Part shown: positions 4,363 through 20,955 of the stretch, piece after piece
Layout of the letters: every line of letters starts with the position of its first letter
Numbering within the stretch: the stretch's first letter is position 1
Source: Rhizaria sp. SCN 62-66
Taxonomy: Eukaryota
Length of the DNA: 64,000 nucleotides
Direction: 5' to 3'
Assembly (NCBI GenBank): GCA_001724265.1
Contig: MEDY01000081.1
Location: 1 to 64,000 of the forward strand
The notes under the pieces: generated by a model
Seen by the model: only the letters and a program-made list of their open reading frames with translations
Database searches by the model: none
Told to the model about the DNA's origin: nothing
Made by a program: the position numbers and the translations under genes

Positions 4363-4410
4363 CAAGTTCGGTGGTCGAGTTCGAAGGTCGAGTTCGATGG
4401 TCAAGTTCGC
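4363..4410. repeat. 13-bp tandem repeat (~3.7 copies, C[A/G]AGTTCG[A/G][A/T]GGT) just 3' of the FBPase stop codon
   Basis: caagttcggtggt / cgagttcgaaggt / cgagttcgatggt / caagttcgc, read directly. Confidence 0.8.
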
Positions 4411-4414
4411 TTGC

Positions 4415-5536
4415 TTAGAGCTTGGCCTTCTTGGGCTCAAAGCCCTCGCCGGCCTTGATGCCACTCTTCTTGTAGAGCGCGATGACCTCGTCGACCATGC
4501 CGGAGCTGCCCAGCCACACGGGGCAGCGCTGGTGCAGGGTCTTGGGCACGATGTCCAGGATGCGCTCGGTGCCCGTCGTCGCGCGACCACCAGCCTGCTC
4601 CATAATAAACGCCATGGGGTTGCACTCGTAGAGCAGGCGGAGCTTGCCGGCCGGGTTGTTGGCGTCGGCGGGGTAGGAGAAGACGCCGCCGTAGAGCAGC
4701 GTGCGGTGGACGTCCGAAACCATGGAGCCGATGTAGCGGCCGCGGTGCTGCCGCTGGTGCTCCAGCGAGACCCACTGCGCCGTGGGCGCGTCCCAGTGGT
4801 CCGCGTTGCCCTCGTTGATCGAGTAGATCTTGCCCTGCGTGGGGACGCGCATGTGCTTGTGGGTGTAGATGAACTCGCCGATGCTGGGGTCGAGCGTGAA
4901 GCCGTGAACGCCGCGGCCCGTGGTCAGCACGATCGTCGTCGCGGGGCCGTAGAGCGCGTAGCCGGCCGCCACGAGCTGGTTGCCCGGCTTGAGGAGGTCG
5001 TCCACGGAGGTGGGCTTGTCGCTCTTGGCGTCCTTCTGGTAGATGCCCCAGATGGAGCCGACGCCGACGTTGCAGTCGATGTTGGAGCTGCCGTCCAGAG
5101 GGTCGAACACGATGGCGTAACCGCCCTTGGTGTCGTCGACGATAATCGGCTTGTCCTCCTCCTCGCTGCCCATGATGTAGACCTGGTCGGAGAAGGCGCA
5201 GCAGTTGACGAAGACGTCGTTGGACAGCACGTCGAGCTTCTTCTGCTCGTCGCCGGAGCTGTTCTCGTTGCCCGCGAGCCCGTACAGGTTCGCGATACCC
5301 GCCTTGTGGGTCGCCGAGGCGATGACCTTGACGGCAAGCTGAATAGACTGCAGCAGCATAGTGAAGTCGCCCGTGGCTCCAGTGAAACGCTTGCGCTCGG
5401 AGAGCAGGAAGCGAGTCAGAGTGACCGGGTTGCGGTTGCGCTCGAACTCGTGGTCCGTGCCCGAAACAGAGGTCGAGGGGCGCGGCTTCACGTTCGCTGA
5501 AATAGAAGAAGAAGAGGAAGAAGTAGGGGCGGACAT
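4415..5536 (-). CDS. FBP1: Fructose-1,6-bisphosphatase class I, 373 aa, intronless, C-terminal PTS1-like -AKL; TAA stop
   Basis: Motifs TLTRFLL, GDEQKKLDVLSND, SEEED, FDPLDGSSNIDCN, AAGYALYG, YSINEGN, RYIGSMVSDVHRTLLYGG, GKLRLLYECNPMAFIMEQAGG. ATG at 5536 (MSAPT...). Confidence 0.96.
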   Translation of the reverse strand: MSAPTSSSSSSISANVKPRPSTSVSGTDHEFERNRNPVTLTRFLLSERKRFTGATGDFTMLLQSIQLAVKVIASATHKAGIANLYGLAGNENSSGDEQKKLDVLSNDVFVNCCAFSDQVYIMGSEEEDKPIIVDDTKGGYAIVFDPLDGSSNIDCNVGVGSIWGIYQKDAKSDKPTSVDDLLKPGNQLVAAGYALYGPATTIVLTTGRGVHGFTLDPSIGEFIYTHKHMRVPTQGKIYSINEGNADHWDAPTAQWVSLEHQRQHRGRYIGSMVSDVHRTLLYGGVFSYPADANNPAGKLRLLYECNPMAFIMEQAGGRATTGTERILDIVPKTLHQRCPVWLGSSGMVDEVIALYKKSGIKAGEGFEPKKAKL

Positions 5537-10427: not shown

Positions 10428-13400
10428 TCACTCCTCGTCGTCGTCGCCAGCGATCACGCGGCGCGAAGGCGCTGCGGCAGCAGGGACGACGCGGGCGTCA
10501 ACCTCGTCGTCGTCGTCGTCGTCGTCGTCGTCAGCGAGCGCGACGCGGCGGCGCTTCACGGTCTGGTTCACCACCTCCTCGTCGTCGTCGTTTGCAACGC
10601 CGGTGGAGTTGCTGCTGGCGGGGTGGGCGCCGCGGTTGCGGGCGCGGAGCAGCGCGGTGAGTCCATCCTCCTCCTCGTCGTAGTCGTCACGCGCGTCGGC
10701 GGCCTCCTTCTTGTCGCCGCCCTCAGTCTTAACCGCCGCCTCGGCGTCGGCGTCGGAGTCGGAGTCGGAGTCGGAGTCGGAGTCGGCGGCCTTGGCGGCG
10801 ACAGCAGCGGCGTCGTCGGCGTTGGCAGCGGCGGCGGCGGCAGCGGCGGCGAGGAGAGATTTGTCCTTCTTCTCCTTCTTCTCCTTCTTTTCCTTCTTCT
10901 CCTTTTTCTCCTTCTTCTCCTTCTTGTCTTTCTTGTCCTTCTTCTCCTTCTTGACGCCAGCCTCAGACTTGACTCTAACCGAGCCGGCAGCAGCAGCCGC
11001 GGCGACAGCGGCCGCAGCCGCCTTGGCCTTGGCCGCAGCCGCCGCAGCGGCCGCCTTGGCCTTGGCCTCGGCACGGAGACGCTCCTTCTCGGCCTTGGCC
11101 TCGGCCTTGGCCTTGGCGCGGGCCTCGGCCTTGGCCGCCAGACGCGCCGCGCGCTCCTCCTCGGTCTCGCCCTCGACCACGTCGTTGGCGTCGTCCTCGG
11201 CCGCGACGTTGTCGTCGCCGTCGTCGTCGTAGTCGTCGTCGTCGTCGTCGTCATCCGCGGCGCCGCGACGAGCCCTCTTGCCCGCCTCGCGTTTGCTCTT
11301 GACCATGTCGGCCTCGGCCTCGGCCTCCTGCAGCCGCGCCATTGCAGCCTCGCGCGCCACGGCGGCCGCAGCCAGCAACACGCGCGCCTGCTCCTGCTCG
11401 GTCTCGGTCGCCGCGCGCGAGGCCTCGGCCTCGGCGGCAGCCACGGCGGCGCGCGCGGCGGCGGCCTCGGCCTCGGCGGCCGCCATCTGCTGCTGCTGCG
11501 CATGCTCCTGCGCGATGGCAGCGCGCGACTTAGTCAGGATCGACGTCATGTGAGGAATCTTGAGGTCCAGGTACTCGAGGTGCTTCGACGAGCGCAGCGC
11601 GAGGTTCTTGAGCGAGATGTTGCTGCTGCTGGAGCCCGCGCTCGGTACGGCGGCAGGGACTGAGGTAGAGGCAGAGGCAGATGCGCTAGAGCTGTTGACG
11701 CTGGCCGCGGCCTCGGGCTAGGCGGCCTTGATGAGCTGCGCGAACATGCTGCGCGCGAGCGTGGCGTCTGCGAGCGCGGCCTCGACGCTGGCGACGTCAA
11801 CCATACCCACGGTCACCGCGGCCGAGGTAACACCCGCCTGTGCGGCCACCGAGGCCTCCTCGAGCGTGATGGCCATGTTGTACCACAGCGAATGCTTGCC
11901 GGGCGTCAGCTCCAGCGCGCGGGCCAGAGCGCGCCGCGCGTCGCTGGCGCGGGACGCGAGGTGGTAGGTGCGAGCTAGGTAGAGCTGCGCGTTGGCGACG
12001 GCCTCGATGCCCGCGCCCGTGGCCTCCAGGGTCGCGATGGCGGCCGAGTAGAGCAGGATCGCGTCGGCGTACTGGCCCTCCTGGGTGAGCACGTGTGCAA
12101 GGTTCACGGCCACGTTGGCGTCGCCTGGTACGGCAGCGCGCGCGTCGGCAAGCGCCGCGCGCACCAGCGGCAGCACGGCGCGCGTCTTGCCGGTGCCGGC
12201 GGGCAGCCCCGCGGCGGCCTCGTCAACCTGCGCCAGCTCGGCCATCGCGGCCGTCAGCCCCAGCAGCGCGGGCAGGCAGCCCGGGTCCAGCGTCAGCGCG
12301 CGGTTGAACTTAGACACGGCGTCGCCCAGGTCCGACTTGGCAGTCGCCAGGTGCGTCGCCACAGCCTTGTCCAGCTCGGGCTTGGACGAGCTCGACGGAC
12401 GCAGCTGCCGCAGCTCCACCAGCCGCGCCGCCTTGACGCGCTCGTTCGAGCCGCGCGCGGCCAGCAGACGGCCCTTGGCGGTGATCGCGTAGGCGTCCTT
12501 GAGCGCAGCGCCGCTCGCGCCGGCGCCGGGGGCAGCGCTGTCTGCGTCGGTCATGGCGGAGCTAGTGCCGGAGTGCGTGGCCTGCTCGCGGTACGCAACT
12601 TCGTAGAGACGCTCGGCGCGCGAGAGCAGCGCGGCGTTGCGGTGCTTGTTGTCAAAGCTGAGCTCGCCCAGGATCGAGAGCACTTGCGCGCGCGCCTCCT
12701 GCCCCGTAACGGGGCGCACGGCCGCGAAGGCCTCGACCACGCCCGCGCCCACGGCGGCTGCGGCAACGGCGGGGTCCGCGGTCGCCGCCACGCCCGCACC
12801 GGCGGCGGATGCGGCCTCGCCGTCAGTCATGGGCTTAGCGTTAGCGTTGGTGTTGGCGGTGTTTGTGAGGGAGGAAGGCGGGAGGTTGACGAGAGCGCGA
12901 AGCTGGTTAAGCCCCCACTCGAGGCCGAGCAGCGAGTGGCGCGTGGCCAGCTCGGCCAGCTTCACCACGGCGTCTGTGTAGCCGCTGTGGCTGCGGACCA
13001 GCGCAGCCAGCACCAGCTCCGCCTCGGTCGTCTTGCCCGCCTGCTCCAGCAGCAGCGCCACGTTGTAGGCAGTGGTGACGGCCGCGGCGGGCAGCGGCAG
13101 CGGCAGCGAGATGCCCGCGACCGTGAGCGACGACGACGGCAGCGACGAGATCAAAGTTGAGCCGCTGTCGGCGCCGGTCGCGGCGGGATCGGACAGCGCG
13201 GCCGCCATCTCGGCCTCGGTGGGGCCGGCGGTCGCCGCGGTGACCGTGGGCGCGGCGCTGCTAGAGGCGGGCGAAGCGGCCGTGGGGCTGAGCTCGCGGC
13301 GCAGCTGCTGCAGCGAGTAGCTGTAGGCGGCAGCGGCGGCGTCGGGAGCAGAGCCCAGCTCGTGCAGCGCCGCGCCGAGGTTGTGCCACAGCGCGCGGGG

Positions 13401-15806
13401 GGCCGCGGCCACGGCGGCCTCGGTCACGACGGCAGCCGCAGCCGCAGTCGCATCGGCGGCGGAGTCGGCGTTGTTGGGGTTGGAGGTGAGCGTGGCGACG
13501 GACACGCCGGTGAGTAGCGACACGGCGCGGGCGATACTCGCGAGCGCGGCGGCGGGGGCCGCGGCGCCGCCCGTCACGGCGGCCGTGGCGCAGGCCTGCG
13601 CGTGCTCGGCCAGCACCAGCGCCTCGGCCTTGTCCAGCGCACGGACGGCGGACGTCCCCTCAGACTTGTTGCCGTTGTTGTCCGAGGCGGCGGCGAGGGG
13701 CGCGAGCGCGCCGCTGGCGAGGGCCGAGGCCGCGGTAGCGAGCAGCGGGCGCGCGCGTGCGGGGTCGGCGCCAACGGTGAGCAGCGCGTGGCCCAGCGCC
13801 AGCGCCACCGAAGGCTCACCGGCCGGGGCCGCGGCGGCCGCGCGGGTCAGTGCGGCCACAGCGGCGCGGCCGGTCGTAGTCGCGGTAGACGGGGACGAGA
13901 GCGCGGAGCGCAGGAGCAGCTTGCCAAGGCCCAGGAGCGCGCCTGGGTGGGCCGGGGCCAGGCGCAGGGCGGCGGAGTAGAGGCTCAGCGCCTGTGGGGA
14001 GTTGAGCGGCAAGAAATAGTGGGATATGAGTCGTTGGGTAATAAAATAATGTTTACATTTAACTTTGAGAAAAGATACGAGACAGAATGTCAACATGGCA
14101 AACAAGAAAACATATAGGCGTACCTGAGACGCGAGGACCTCGCCCGTGGCGGCCACGTTGACCCCTGCGGCGCTGCTGCTGCCGAACACGCTGTCCACGT
14201 CACCCATCGCGGCGCCCGCTGCGCCGGCCCCGGCCTCGGCCTCGGCGGCAGTGGCGAGGACCGCGGCGGCGGCGACGGAGGGCTGGTCGGGCAGCGCGAG
14301 CCCAGCGAGCGAGTGCGCGACGCGGGCGCGCTGGTATGCGATCTCGGCCCGCAGCGCCTCGACGCCGATGGCGCTGAAGCCGCCCAGCGCGCCACTGGCC
14401 GTGGCCTCGGCGCGCGCGAGCAGCGCCTCGATGCCGGCCGCGGCCGAGGTGGGCAACGTCACGGTCACCGCGCCCTCGCTGCTCACGGCCACCTGCGGGC
14501 TGCCGGCCTGGAGGCGCGCGCGCGTGCGTGCGGCGAAGAAGGCGTGGTTGGCCAGCGCCGCGAGCGCAAGCGGGTGATTCGGCGCAAGCGACTGTGCGTA
14601 GGCCAGGAGTGATAGCGCCTTGGCGGGGTCGCCCGTCGCCGCGGCGTCAGCGCCAGCGCTGCCGGCGGCGGCGGTGGCGGGCGGCGGGTGGAGGAAGAGC
14701 TGGAGCTCGAGCAGGCCGAGCGCGGCGGCGGCGTCGGCGCACTTGGGGTCAAGCTGCAGCGCGCGCATAAAGGCGCGGCGCGCGGCAGTGTAGGCCTTAA
14801 GCGCGTAGTGACAGAGCCCGATCGACACGCGCACGGCGGCCGGGAGAGCCGGGTTGGCAATAAGCGCGGCGGAGTAGGCGGCCAGCGCGCTGCGGGGATC
14901 GCCGCGGAGCGCCTTGACGAGCCCCATGAGGAGCAGCGCCAGCGCGTCGCCAGGCGGCGCCGTGGCGCTGCCCGCCGAGGCCAGCGCGACCGCCGCCGTG
15001 CTCGTTGGCGCGCCGCCCGCGGGCCCCGCGGGGGCGGAGGCGGAGCCGAGCGCGAGCGCGAGGGCGGACTCGGCCGTGGCGGCGGCCGAGGCGGCTGTGG
15101 GCTCGGCGGCGAGCGCGAAGTAGGCGCGCATCGACCAGACTGAGGGGCAGTTGACATGGGTCGCCTGCATCGTCGTCGTCGCGGTCGTCAGCGCCTGTGG
15201 GCAGACAAAGAAGTAGAAAAAACACGATTGATAGAGTTAAATGTGAGACAAATTGGCATTGAAACAGCAAGGGTGCATGAAACGAGGACGTCGTGTGTAT
15301 GAGCGTACCTGCGTGGCGGAAGATGCGGCGACGGTGCGGTCGCGCACTGGCAGAGCGAGCGCCTGCGCCATGGCGGCGCCGGCCTGCGCTGTGAGCAGCT
15401 TGACCTGGGCCAGACTGTCGGCCGCGGTCTGCACCGGCACCGTCTGTGCGTGCTGCACAAGCTGCTGGAACGCCGCGCCGTGCCCGCGCTTGTGGTACTC
15501 GAGCGCCAGCGCGTGGCAGAGCGACGCCGACACGCCCTGTGACAGCAACGCGTGCAGGTCCGACAGCGGCGGCAACGCGTCGGCGGGGCTCAGAGTCAGC
15601 GGGAGAGCGACGGTCGAGAGGGGCTCGGTCGCGGGCGCCGAGCCGGGGGCCAGCGAGTACAGCAGGGGGTTCTGCAGCGGCAGCAGGAGGTCGTAGGACG
15701 CGGGGAGCGCTGAGGCGGCGTCGAGCGCGGCCACGGAGTCGACAGGCGCGTTGGTGTTCATGGTGGGGTCAGCCGAGGCGGAGGCCGCGGCGGTCGAGGA
15801 AGACAT
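10428..15806 (-). CDS. CTR9: PAF1 complex TPR subunit CTR9, ~1710 aa (exons 15806-15309, 15194-14124, 13991-10428), with one in-frame TAG at 11720-11718; TGA stop
   Basis: N-terminus LCHALALEYHKRGHGAAFQQLV resembles CTR9 [64 protein letters not shown] and LWYNMAITL are TPR motifs. After the TAG the same frame continues into a helical region and a charged K/D/E tail as expected for CTR9. Comparisons are from memory, not an alignment. Confidence 0.88.
10754..10950 (-). repeat. Low-complexity coding repeats: (GACTCC)n = DSDSDS and a KKE/KKD repeat
   Basis: Tandem ggagtc units at ~10754-10785 and ttctcc/ttcttc units at 10861-10950 on the + strand. Confidence 0.85.
13992..14123 (-). other. Spliceosomal intron (132 nt, phase 0, stop-free 3n) in CTR9
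   Basis: CAG|GTACGC ... CCACAG|GCG; an AT-rich island that the ORF track translates as atypical sequence (VRLYVFLFAMLTFC...). Confidence 0.88.
15195..15308 (-). other. Spliceosomal intron (114 nt, phase 0) in CTR9
   Basis: CAG|GTACGC ... CCCACAG|GCG; AT-rich, contains an in-frame TAA. Confidence 0.88.
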
Positions 15807-16640: not shown

Positions 16641-19600
16641 ATGGACCGTTATATGGTGCTGGCCAAGGTTGGTGAAGGCACGTTCGGCGAGGTCTTCAAG
16701 GCCCGCTGTCGCGACACAGGCGCCTATGTACGTTACTCACATATTCGTTCATTAACCTCGACAAATCCATATAGATAACAACGGTATCGCAATCAACGTC
16801 GGCGTGGCATATCACATCTTGTATTCTAACTGTACTTTTTTCCGTGCTCGGTCCTGCAACTATTGTGTATCTCCACAGGTGGCCCTAAAGAAGGTTCGCG
16901 TGCGCAACCTCGCCGCGGGTCTCCCTAAGTCTGTCATCCGCGAAATCCGCGCCCTCTCAGCGCTGCGCTCGCCGCACCTCATCCGCCTGCTGCGTTACTT
17001 TGCATTTGGCGCGGGTGTTGTGCTGGTGCTCGAGTACATGGCCAGTGACGCGCTCAAGCTCGCCAAGACGCTCTCGCAGCGCACGGGCGCCCGGCTGCCG
17101 CTCGCTGCAGTGAGGTCGCTCACGCGAGACACCGTCGAGGGGCTGTGGGCGCTGCACGGCAAGGGCGTGATGCACCGCGATGTGAAGCCCGGCAATGTGC
17201 TGGTGGACAGCGACGGCCGCGCCGTGCTGGGCGACCTCGGCATGGCACGCGTCTACCAGCAGGGACAGGTACGGAGATTCGCCAAATTCGAGCGGATATC
17301 ATCAAAACGTGCACATATATTACAATATATGGGGATACTCTTTTTTAATGTTGCATTGTGAGTTTGCATCAATGAATTGGACTAATCCCCGACAATCAAT
17401 CTCATTACCGTCTACTTTTCTACAGATCTACTCGCACGAAGTCGCGTCGCGGTGGTACAAGGCTCCCGAGCTCCTGCTGGGCACGCGCCAGTCGACCCCT
17501 GCCATCGACATGTGGGCTCTGGGCTGCGTTGTCGCAGAGTGGCTCTCCGGCGGCGCGCTCATGGCAGGCGGCAACGACATCGACCAACTGGCGCGCATTT
17601 TCTCCACTGTGGGCACGCCTCTCGAGACTGAGACGGAGCCAGAAAACGCTGACGCAAACGCAACAGACGGTAACAACAATAACAGCAAGGCAGATACAAC
17701 TAACGTTACAGAAAATAGTTTTAGCGTTGGGTTTGTGACTGAAACTGGTTTCCCGTTCGCGCCCGTGCCGTGTCGCCGCACGTGGCCCTCGGTGGTGACT
17801 CTGCTCGACTACACTAAGATTACATTCCCTCCATCCGCGGGCCGCGACTGGACAGAGACGTTGCCCACCGCTGACCCGGCGGCCGTGGACTTCGTGGCGC
17901 GGCTGCTGGTGTTGGACCCTGTTAAGCGCATGACTGCGGAGCAAGCGCGACAGCACCCGTTTGTCACCGGCAACCTGAACACGCGGACCGGCGACAACGC
18001 GGACACCGGCACGGTTGGTGCGCTTTGGAGTTGTCTTGACGTTAGGAACAGCGGCGCTGACGGCAAGGAGCTCGTGGCGTCGCTAGTCAAGTTTTCTCTC
18101 GCGGCCAACGAGGCCGCAGCGGCCACGACGGTCGCGGTTGCGGTCGCGCACGGACACACCCAGGGGTACGGCGCCCGCAACGGCGGCGACGGCGCTAGCG
18201 ACGATGACGAAGACGAGGACGACGAGGGTTACAGCAACTTGATGTACGCGAACGATCCCACCGCGAGTAACAGCAACGTTAACACTGGCCGCAGTCTCAA
18301 CTCCACGCTGCACACGCCCACAACAAACGCCACAGCAAACGCGTCGGCCTCAGCGATGACGACGACGCTGACCAGAACTGGTCTTATCAATGGTAGCGGA
18401 GGCGCGCCGCTGTTCACGCCGCCACGGCCGAGGCAGCAGTCTGTCAAGCAAGCACTCGGCAATGACGATAGCAAAGACGGCACTGGCAAGTGCTGCTGTC
18501 GGGGTGGCGTGAGCTGCCGTGGTCGCAAGAGCAATGCAAGTGTTTGTGATAGCTTTGGCTCATATCGGACCATGTCAGATGTGACTGTGAACACAACGAC
18601 GAGCAAGGGCGGCGTCGACGAGAAGACGGTATTCACCGTTGCTTTGAACAGCGACCCGCAGTCATGCGGCACGAATGATAACAAGAATGAAGGTTTTGCA
18701 ATGCAGATTGATACTCGCGGACATGTGTCATTCACTCTGCCCTCGGTCACACCGACAGTGCTCGCAGCCCAAACGAATCAAGGACAGGGATCGAGCAAGC
18801 ACAAGACCAAGAAGAAGATGTGGCAGGGGAAATGTAAAAACGCACAGAAGGGCAGCGCTAAGAGTAATTTCTCACGCTCGGAATGCTGCTGCCTCCAAAC
18901 CTAGCCACAGCCTGAGCGGCTGCGACTGCCTTCGTGGCTGTCGACCCAGTCGATGCAGGAAGAAGTCGCCTTCTGGACCGCGGTTGACGCTGCCACCAGC
19001 GACACGAATCGCGTTCCCAGCATCAACATCAACGGAGCGCCTACCGTGAGCAGCCTGCCCGTGGGCCATCTTATCAGCGCTGCCACGGCCGCCACCCCGT
19101 ACAGTCACGAGATCATGGGCGCGGCACTGCTCGCCGCTACACTCGAGACCAGTGAGACCACCCCTGGAACCGCGATCTCTGCGGCGAGTGTGGGTAATAA
19201 TGCTGCCGTTGGCGACTGCGGTGTTGATGTTGACGCCGTTGTTCTCGCAATGATTCTTGGTATCAACGTAAACACGACTCCGGCACCCGCTCCTGTAGAC
19301 ACAAGTACTGGAGGCAGTGAAGCTGTGAGTGCTGCATTAAAGGTGACTGTGGGGGTATGTGTTTGCAACAACGCCATTTTCCGACCGCCCGGCTCGGTCA
19401 CGTTTCCACACGACGCCCTTCCCAACAGCACCAGCGCCAACACAGCCGGTAATGCCAACGCAGTCGCAGGCGGTGCTACGGCGAGCAATGAGGGCGAAAA
19501 CGCAAAGAGCAACGCTGTGGACAGTGGTTTTGATAACACTGTTGTTCTCGCCGCCGCCGTCACGGCCCCGGACGCCAACACCAACAGCTATGCCTTTGCC

Positions 19601-19843
19601 CACGGTAAAAGCAACAACATTCACAATAATAGCGGCGGCATCGGTGGCAACGTCATCATCAGCGACGCCGTAACTGCTGCGGCCGCCACGGGCGCGCTGA
19701 CCGAAGAGGATGACGGCGACGGCGGCAACGGCTCCAAGATGGCATGGGCCATGCTCGCCGAGGTCAGGCGCTTCCACCAGCTCCTCCAAAAGCTCGACTT
19801 GGCACAGGCGCAAACGCAGACGCAAATGCAAAACTAGTCATGA
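16641..19843 (+). CDS. CDK20: CDK20/CCRK (LF2)-like kinase with long C-terminal extension (exons 16641-16727, 16879-17268, 17426-19843; ~964 aa if TAG 18902 and TAG 19835 are sense; TGA 19841-19843)
   Basis: MDRY.VLAKVGEGTFGEVFKA, VALKKV, GLPKSVIREIRAL, FGAGVVLVLEYMASD, HRDVKPGNVL, DLGMAR, YSHEVASRWYKAPELLLG, DMWALGCV, GNDIDQLARIF..VGTP fit the CDK20 subfamily. The kinase domain is secure; the 3' end depends on how TAG is read. Confidence 0.82.
16728..16878 (+). other. Spliceosomal intron (151 nt, phase 0) in CDK20
   Basis: TAT|GTACGT ... TTCTAAC (branch-like) ... CCACAG|GTG; joins TGAY|VALKK. Confidence 0.93.
17269..17425 (+). other. Spliceosomal intron (157 nt, phase 0) in CDK20
   Basis: CAG|GTACGG ... 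ACTAAT ... CTACAG|ATC; joins ARVYQQGQ|IYSHEV in the activation loop. Confidence 0.93.
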
Positions 19844-20655
19844 AGATGCGGATTTGACACTATATAGTCTAAGAATAGATAGATTAATAGCAACAATGGT
19901 AATACTAAGCAAATTAATTCTTTGTTGTGGAACTTTGATTAAAAAATAAACTTTTGTATTGATTTGGGAAAAAAGAAATTGTTGAGTTTGTCGATGATGA
20001 TAAGCACAAATGCGTCTTGCGATCAGTGGCTACAGACAGCAGACTTGACTTGCACTGCATTGCTTGCTACGTGTTGGGCTTTGGTGAGCGTGCATATGAA
20101 AGTCAGAGGCTGACAATAGGTGCACGTGGAGAGAGAGGTAAGGAGGAAGTGACAAAACGTGTCTCCTTCACAAAAAGACTCTTCTCGTGACATTAACAAG
20201 GCGACATTGGGGAAAAATAAAAACGCAAGCGGCCAAACAGGCAAGCAAGTGATTGTAGACAGCAAAATGCAAGAGTAGGAGCAAAAGCACAGCAACAGTG
20301 AAGCGTGTTAAAAGGAAGTGTGGCACGTGTCCAGACAGCAACTGTGCTTTTGGGTGCAAGCAAGCGTAGATGCAAGAGGGTGTTAAGTGTAAATAGTTGT
20401 GATAAAACACGCCTTTCCAAACCCAAACGAAGACGTCACAGCAGCTCCAGCACAAAACCTCAATCAATCTCTGCAAACGAGTGCAAATGACTGAAAAGGG
20501 CTGCAGGAGCCAGAGCTGCGAGTCGCTTCGTGGGACAGGTTAACGCGCCTGCTGCGGCTCGCACGTGCCAAAACTCAGTTTAGCCGGTGCGCCTTTGTGG
20601 GCGTTCCCCGTGCGTCCGTAATTGTGGAAGGTCGTGCATTGGGACGGCGGTTCGC

Positions 20656-20955
20656 TTACTTGTACGCGAGGCGCTCGTTGGTCTCGGACTCAATCTTCTT
20701 CATGAGGTCGGCGAGGCCGTACGAAGTGTAGGGGTCGTAGTCCTGGAGGTGCTTGGGGACCTCCTCATGCTTGAACGAAAGGTCGTGTGCGCGAATAAGG
20801 CGGCGCACGCGGTCCTTCTGGACGTCGGGGGGAAGCATGTTGACGGCCTTGGCGACGGTGTCGTTGCTGATGATGATGTCCTCAGCAAAGAGGCCGAAGG
20901 CACGGAGCTTGTTGACGGTCATACGCTTCTCAACGTTGGCAAGGGCGCGCAGCAT
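20656..20955 (-). CDS. QCR7: Ubiquinol-cytochrome c reductase subunit 7 (14 kDa subunit), ~99 aa; TAA stop
   Basis: LRAFGLFAEDII...VAKAVNMLPPDVQKDRVRRLIRAHDLSFKHEEVPK...YDPY.SY...LMKKIESETNER fits the QCR7/UQCRB pattern (GL..DD, A..RLP, R..R..RA.DLS.K...LP). The start is at ATG 20955 or at the in-frame ATG 20970. Confidence 0.88.
   Translation of the reverse strand: MLRALANVEKRMTVNKLRAFGLFAEDIIISNDTVAKAVNMLPPDVQKDRVRRLIRAHDLSFKHEEVPKHLQDYDPYTSYGLADLMKKIESETNERLAYK

Follow-up and report, generated by a model that had tools for sequence, protein, structure and literature searches.

An in-frame TAG, probably translated through at least part of the time, between a CDK-like kinase and a 310-codon extension in a GC-rich protist

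A C at the base after a stop codon (+4) makes for a leaky stop context, and stimulatory RNA structure downstream of the stop accompanies only some cases of readthrough. Nuclear codes in which UAG alone has gained a meaning have also been described; UAG encodes Gln in Iotanema spirale and Leu in the rhizarian exLh, and Amoeboaphelidium is named as well (PMC5304391). The same paper gives 204 in-frame UAGs in 126 genes for Iotanema, about 8 % of its Gln codons, and 384 in 71 genes for exLh, with 1.6-5.4 in-frame UAGs per gene across the UAG-only lineages, many of them at conserved Gln or Leu columns (PMC5304391). A search of an open-access library returned no paper on how UAG is decoded in nuclei of stramenopiles, thraustochytrids, labyrinthulomycetes or bicosoecids, and none on a changed nuclear stop codon among stramenopiles. 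Here we analyse a window of 64,000 nucleotides (positions 1 to 64,000 of contig MEDY01000081.1, Rhizaria sp. SCN 62-66), in which the gene of a CDK-like kinase on the plus strand carries an in-frame TAG at 18902..18904 (codon 652, context ACC TAG CCA). The evidence suggests that this GC-rich protist probably translates through the kinase TAG at least part of the time.

The kinase belongs to a set of gene models that comprises eight spliced genes and one giant HECT gene, with 18,347 codons modelled. Its first exon (16641..16727, +) has 29 codons (MDRYMVLAKVGEGTFGEVFKARCRDTGAY) and is kept in frame in the spliced model, with a GTACG intron starting at 16728. Exon 2 (16879..17268, +; 130 codons) contains VALKK, HRDVKPGN and GDLG in that order and matches Pfam Pkinase at E 1.6e-24; its best PDB matches are to CDK2 (E about 5e-18), with CDK1 and CDK4 also among the best. 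Exon 3 (17426..18901, +) encodes the remainder of the kinase domain, residues 3-180 of the exon being assigned to Pfam Pkinase, followed by a tail of about 310 aa rich in Asn, Thr, Ser and Gly that ends in SSKHKTKKKMWQGKCKNAQKGSAKSNFSRSECCCLQT. The TAG is followed by 16 sense codons (18905..18952, +), the rare codons CCA, CGG and CGA among them, and then by an open reading frame (ORF) at 18953..19834 (+) that has 294 codons from its first ATG, or 310 counted from the TAG. The frame closes with TAG TCA TGA at 19835..19843 (+), where the second in-frame TAG is codon 963 and is followed by T, and the TGA is followed by A; GC falls to 0.25-0.4 downstream of 19843. Three kinase products are predicted from the spliced model: 651 aa if the first TAG terminates, 962 aa if the second does, and 964 aa if only the TGA does. 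A preliminary description of this locus had quoted TGC CTC CAA ACC before the TAG, CCA CAG CCT GAG CGG after it and TCG ATG CAG at the ATG; these letters are present in their place with the TAG in the kinase frame, and the 48-nt gap to the ATG at 18953, which it had called in frame and free of stops, is indeed so and equals the 16 sense codons. It also labelled the kinase CDK20, a tentative assignment beside a Pfam match to Pkinase in general and best PDB matches to CDK2.

That the sequence beyond the TAG is coding is indicated by its codon usage, which was scored with a model trained on the HECT gene (in-frame codons against the other five frames) and expressed as a log-likelihood ratio (LLR) in bits per codon. 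Kinase exons score +0.25 to +0.36 overall, and within exon 3 the domain scores +0.29 and the tail +0.25. Positions 18905-19834 reach +0.409 in the kinase frame and at most -0.05 in the other five frames, next to reference values of +0.757 for the window's fructose-1,6-bisphosphatase (FBPase) gene and -0.3 to -0.57 for four 3′ flanks. Because the score is positive in the kinase frame only, the post-TAG ORF is real coding sequence and not the shadow of a minus-strand gene; the latter candidate was rejected, as the best minus-strand frame scores -0.047 against +0.409. Codon usage is needed for such a call because long antisense and off-frame ORFs over GC-rich genes also merge across single TAGs in this genome (e.g., 11554-14049, +, 831 codons with TAG taken as sense), which makes ORF length weak evidence. 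For the record, the frame stays open for 310 codons past the kinase TAG and for 429 past an equivalent TAG in CTR9, described below, compared with 30, 2, 26, 60, 20, 5, 1 and 27 codons past eight terminal stops (range 1-60).

The region past the kinase TAG also does not resemble the end of a gene. GC climbs to 0.65 there, and it drops past true stops. The preliminary description had put real spacers at about 0.5-1.1 kb and called them AT-rich, and the coding-sequence-to-coding-sequence spacers of the gene models agree with it: they measure 475, 1116, 946, 932, 1057, 834, 812 and 920 nt (475-1116 nt, n = 8), with GC of 0.25-0.5. The commonest short words in the eight true 3′ flanks, TTGTTGA (4/8) and TGATG and TTGAT (6/8 each), are absent from the 200 nt past either internal TAG. 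The further claim that composition is the same on both sides of the TAG is borne out in part: Asn (8.0 % before, 8.4 % after) and Thr (11.9 and 9.4 %) are high throughout, where five further proteins encoded in the window have 2.3-4.3 % and 2.3-7.1 %, and it fails for Ala (9.9 vs. 17.4 %), Lys (5.8 vs. 1.6 %) and Cys (3.5 vs. 1.0 %). The extension itself is of low complexity and predicted to be disordered, its Atlas model having a predicted local distance difference test (pLDDT) value of 0.29 and a predicted template-modelling score (pTM) of 0.19. No domain was found in the post-TAG ORF in Pfam or NCBIfam, and an Atlas search with it gave no usable feature match, all structural hits having template-modelling scores below 0.5. 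Searches for homologues of the kinase tail plus extension returned only the window's own ORF, and scans of bacterial and archaeal genome contigs gave no match.

The strongest argument for passage through TAG comes from a second gene, that for CTR9 (10428-15806, -), located 7 kb from the kinase TAG, where an in-frame TAG at 11718..11720 (-; codon 1281 of the spliced model, context GCC TAG CCC) is followed by 429 codons (10431..11717, -) that end in TGA-A and probably encode the CTR9 C-terminal region. The part before the TAG matches TPR families in Pfam, and human CTR9 residues 158-280, 492-540 and 665-764 align to it; since human CTR9 aligns there up to residue 764, the TAG is placed where the helical, charged C-terminal region should begin. 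This TAG sits in coding sequence that is rich in GC and shows nothing resembling an intron, and residues directly before it align with homologues. When residues -173 to +127 around the TAG were used as a phmmer query against the full library, 81 proteins matched, and in 12 of the 80 non-self matches the best stretch spans the TAG position, reaching as far as query residue 287. An alignment with ten homologues places a K-H-x-x-Y/F element, a coiled-coil stretch, and Lys-rich and acidic runs in the same order beyond the TAG, whose own column is a variable linker and not conserved, and the ORF ends in RR-V/M...DDEE motifs as does the 1565-aa homologue P0034. Aligned by hhalign to the C-terminal columns of the ten homologues, the 429-aa post-TAG ORF scores 45.1 (probability 79 %, E 1.6e-5, 253 colinear columns), which exceeds all 132 controls: 26.3 for the reversed sequence, 11.0 ± 1.5 (maximum 14.6) for 40 residue shuffles, 25.1 ± 4.9 (maximum 40.0) for 40 shuffles of 20-aa blocks, and at most 23.5 for 51 other 429-aa windows of this DNA. 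Its codon LLR is +0.677. From these alignments the post-TAG ORF is probably homologous to the CTR9 C-terminal region, if short of proof, and where a conserved C-terminal region lies downstream of the TAG, translation must pass it.

The two internal TAGs share their surroundings. The preliminary description had pointed out that both are followed by CC, which is correct, and both are also preceded by CC, so that the CC-TAG-CC sites are identical. Two codon sites would share all four flanking bases with a probability of about 0.010 (0.008 for CC..CC), and a shared context at p of about 0.01 points to a context effect. Both TAGs fall at domain or linker boundaries. They are, with the second kinase TAG, the sole internal stops in the eight spliced models (CTR9 codon 1281, kinase codons 652 and 963), in which internal TAA or TGA does not occur. 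Gene ends look different: the seven unambiguous terminal stops (at 2226, 3296, 4415, 6483, 8819, 10428 and 20656) are TAA-G in four cases and TAA-A, TGA-G and TGA-A in one each, so that the next base is a purine in 7/7 (G five times, A twice) and TAA makes up 5/7 despite a GC content at third codon positions of about 0.83. With an internal TAG in two of the nine genes, TAG at none of these seven ends, and the only gene-end TAG being a TAG-T backed one codon on by TGA-A, this small sample speaks for a general weakness of UAG over peculiarities of two special genes.

The reading that we favour, tentatively and at slightly short of an even chance, is that UAG is a leaky, context-dependent stop that gives rise to two kinase isoforms. 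UAG would be a poor terminator whose strength depends on context, and at CC-UAG-CC ribosomes would insert an amino acid, by way of a near-cognate or dedicated tRNA, and continue in frame. A single kinase mRNA would then yield two products: a short form of 651 aa that stops at the UAG at 18902 and bears a polybasic, Cys-rich CCCLQT tail, and a long form of about 964 aa that carries the 310-codon disordered extension and terminates in earnest at UGA-A (19841-19843). Genes would as a rule not end in UAG, and inside genes it would be kept only at places where partial termination does no harm or is of use. We infer from the sequence that one mRNA carries both ORFs, that the UAG is decoded, at some efficiency and as some residue, and that the short form is actually made.

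The case for a short form comes from the codons on either side of the TAG. A stretch of 68 codons at 18746..18952 (+; TAG excluded) has non-coding-like codon usage, with a mean LLR of -0.235 that lies below every 68-codon window of the HECT gene (0/13,895), of the kinase at 17426-18745 (0/373) and of the post-ATG ORF (0/227), and that falls inside the range of the four 3′-flank controls. Within it, the roughly 52 codons that lead up to the TAG have the codon usage of an untranslated region (UTR), and the 16-codon gap after it scores -0.607, a value equalled or undercut by 0/477 pre-TAG windows of the kinase, by 0.1 % of 13,947 HECT windows and by 25-44 % of 3′-flank windows. The protein before the TAG ends in SECCCLQT, with C-L-Q-T last, two more Cys, and nine Lys in the preceding 35 residues. 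To judge from its sequence this polybasic CCCLQT end looks like a genuine C-terminus, and it may be akin to a CCaaX lipid anchor, with Cys at -4 from the TAG and with an atypical Gln at a2 and Thr at X. CCaaX lipid anchors function only at a true C-terminus. The CCC of this end is the second of two Cys triplets (GKCCCRGG and SECCCLQT, within 18560-18600 and 18884-18892, +) in the tail of an otherwise Cys-poor protein; the triplets may be acylation or metal-binding sites. The absence of TAG from the HECT gene, the C-terminus-like CCCLQT and the low-scoring flank are together what leads us to a leaky stop with two isoforms over a free sense TAG, and the same three observations keep the possibility of two separate genes alive. 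The preliminary description had proposed that kinase and post-TAG ORF are connected across the TAG, by reassignment or by programmed readthrough, and this is partly supported: the coding ORF in the kinase frame, the lack of a spacer and of 3′-end motifs, and the CTR9 parallel speak for it, and the TAG-free HECT gene, the C-terminus-like CCCLQT and the low-scoring flank do not sit easily with it.

Several observations weigh against passage through the TAG or against its dependence on context. The argument from context is built on two internal sites (n = 2). The low LLR of the 16-codon gap and of the 68 flanking codons also fits a short intergenic or intronic stretch. Stable RNA structure was not found past either TAG, the 99-nt folds having z -0.86 (41 of 200 shuffles as stable) and z +1.64 (188 of 200). 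Under default filters, a HMMER profile of ten homologous C-terminal sequences found nothing in the CTR9 post-TAG ORF at E<=10; once the filters were switched off, hmmsearch gave the ORF as a whole -4.4 bits after a bias correction of 105 bits. Its first 130 residues, which are its best window of that length, scored 7.1 bits against -1.5 ± 2.3 for 300 shuffles and ranked fourth of 1,107 130-residue windows. A phmmer search of PDB with the 126 residues past the CTR9 TAG gave no matches at E<=10, and close relatives of the CTR9 region were limited to the window's own ORF. In favour of the leaky stop, ORFs ending at the internal TAGs are recorded on six (kinase) and four (CTR9) contigs, which are possibly not independent, and none of the 7,999 and 8,000 scored candidates was a variant fused across the TAG.

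A rather less probable view is that UAG has already given up most of its role as a stop and is being captured as a sense codon, in a process that is young and not yet free of cost; UAG would then be very rare and confined to linker sites of the form CC-UAG-CC, with UAA or UGA plus a purine as the sole real terminators. A TAG-free HECT gene and the placement of internal TAGs at boundaries are what one would expect if TAG still costs some termination, and count for the leaky stop favoured above. Complete reassignment would go further still: UAG would be a rare sense codon read by a cognate tRNA(CUA), only UAA and UGA would terminate, and the kinase would be a single protein of 964 aa. Internal TAGs in two of nine genes are far above what gene-specific readthrough usually shows, TAG serves as none of the seven unambiguous terminators, the terminal TAG-T violates the purine rule that the TGA-A of the next stop follows, and the 18,347 modelled codons include no internal TAA or TGA; the known UAG-only lineages likewise end their genes in UAA or UGA only (PMC5304391). 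We nevertheless consider complete reassignment unlikely. The HECT gene uses no TAG in 13,963 codons that include 288 CAG and 43 CAA, and the other eight genes hold three in 4,384; the chance that all three of 18,347 fall outside the HECT gene is about 0.014. TAG is at least ten times less dense than the UAG of Iotanema or exLh (PMC5304391), neither internal TAG lies at a conserved alignment column, the shared CC-TAG-CC is unexpected of a free sense codon, and the CaaX-like end before the kinase TAG would have no function.

If instead the TAG at 18902 is an ordinary stop, the 294-codon ORF from the ATG at 18953 would be a separate, closely packed gene or cistron. This would account for the UTR-like codon usage of the gap and of some 52 codons ahead of the TAG, for a kinase that ends in what resembles a finished polybasic C-terminus, for an ATG of the ORF's own, and for the unlike Ala, Lys and Cys contents across the TAG. 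It would also require a gap ten times shorter than the shortest of the eight spacers (48 against 475 nt), with neither an AT-rich trough nor the common 3′-flank motifs, a preserved frame, and a neighbour whose product is predicted to be disordered (pLDDT 0.29), has no family and shares the unusual Asn/Thr richness of the kinase tail; and the CTR9 parallel would be left unexplained. We regard two genes as improbable for these reasons.

Removal of the TAG by splicing is more improbable again. An atypical in-frame intron, possibly alternatively spliced, could begin with GTGCTC at 18758 and extend for 153 nt, as far as CCACAG at 18910, or end at one of the AGs at 18949 and 18958. Its length is a multiple of 3 nt and within the local size range (114-186 nt, seven introns), three of the seven known introns also end in CCACAG, a branch-like TTCTCAC stands 36 nt upstream of the candidate end, and the candidate overlaps the low-scoring stretch at 18746-18952. 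All seven known introns start with GTACG, though, and near the TAG no GTACG is usably placed; the candidate has a GC content of about 0.52 compared with 0.3-0.45 in real introns, the kinase frame is still the best of three frames across it, and the CTR9 TAG, directly before which residues align with homologues, has no comparable GT...AG pair around it. A canonical intron over the kinase TAG was ruled out for want of a suitably placed GTACG (present in 7/7 introns), as were GT...AG pairs from 18834 or 18864, which are 2 mod 3 in length and lead straight into TGA. Least probable, by a little, is a nonsense allele, a fresh pseudogene, a mistake in the assembly or mRNA editing that abolishes the stop, since, even if TAG at both sites is nothing special when 69 % of the single-base changes that would create a stop yield TAG (1,695 of 2,455 neighbouring codons, at this codon usage), two such events would be required in nine genes, both in CC-TAG-CC and one of them in a core transcription factor, with an intact ORF of biased codon usage past each TAG (310 and 429 codons), truncated ORFs on six and four contigs and no fused variant among the scored candidates.

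Besides CTR9 and the kinase, the modelled genes encode an NADP-isocitrate dehydrogenase (IDH), a small acidic protein, the FBPase, an Ala/Glu-rich secreted-type protein, an ARF-like GTPase, a cytochrome bc1 subunit-7-like protein, and the HECT ligase, whose gene runs off the window. In the HECT gene (21891-63998, +), a first exon of 7 codons and a 162-nt GTACG intron precede a single frame that stays free of any stop for at least 13,963 codons. Its HECT ubiquitin-ligase domain is encoded at the edge of the window, where the gene runs off, and Pfam detects no further domain in the first 12,000 residues of the product. The FBPase (4415-5536, -) has its closest homologues at 75-80 % identity, the nearest named ones being from stramenopiles and animals (54-60 %). 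It ends in -AKL, which we take to be a tripeptide like those of peroxisomal targeting, hinting at possible compartmentalisation. ARAGORN found no tRNA genes in the 64 kb, and Rfam gave no matches.

GC is about 0.65-0.77 in coding sequence and about 0.25-0.5 in spacers and introns. All seven definable introns begin with GTACG (at 1653, 2887, 14123 (-), 15308 (-), 16728, 17269 and 21912), end in YAG and are 114-186 nt long. GTACG is an unusually strict 5′ splice site, which reads in frame as Val-Arg. Intron 2 of CTR9 (13992-14123, 132 nt) is in frame and stop-free, and a naive translation reads it as ORF. A bicosoecid genome has a similar GC of about 70 %, with 1.7-1.9 introns per gene (PMC6972860), which is a tentative taxonomic lead. 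Among 3′ flanks, (AA)GCGAAC occurs within 10 nt past the TAA of three genes, those for IDH (2226-2245), FBPase (4397-4417, -) and bc1 subunit 7 (20640-20658, -), and the words common to the eight true flanks are G/T-rich; both may be 3′-end signals.

If UAG is read through in this genome, annotation under the standard code truncates or splits its genes; public ORF calls at the locus give a 510-aa kinase piece and a 1150-aa CTR9 piece. Gene-completeness scores would then be too low. The genome would also offer a rare view of a stop codon between "stop" and "sense" against a GC-rich background, and a direct test of the codon capture theory. For the kinase, alternation between a short form that may be anchored in a membrane and a long one in which the anchor is buried would make a regulatory switch.

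Polybasic stretches combined with CCaaX lipid anchors occur in small GTPases and PRL phosphatases. The end of the putative short form is like them in its Lys-rich stretch followed by Cys-Cys-Cys-Leu-Gln-Thr directly before the stop, and differs in the non-classical Gln at a2 and Thr at X. Programmed readthrough, as described in fungi, Drosophila, mammals and plants, has in common with this locus the in-frame stop, a codon-biased extension, a C after the stop and two expected isoforms, one short and one long. It differs from this locus, where the extensions reach 310 and 429 codons, which is very long, and that of CTR9 includes conserved protein; two of nine neighbouring genes are affected here, no downstream RNA structure was found, and TAG is not an ordinary terminator in the window. 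The ambiguous codes of Condylostoma, Parduczia, karyorelict ciliates and Blastocrithidia (UAA) resemble the locus in a codon that would be sense inside the gene and could be a stop near its 3′ end (PMC4967479; 10.1101/2022.04.12.488043; PMC12153298). A parallel is the TAG at 19835, which sits 6 nt before the final TGA. Those genomes are AT-rich and use their ambiguous codons abundantly, whereas use here is minimal, coding GC is about 70 % and UAG alone is involved. With UAG-only codes, finally, the locus shares in-frame stops that are exclusively UAG and, at its seven unambiguous ends, termination by UAA or UGA (PMC5304391). UAG is 10-100 times denser in those codes (PMC5304391), whereas the window has three in 18,347 codons; conserved columns hold none of them, nor does a gene of 13,963 codons, and the two internal sites lie in one common context.

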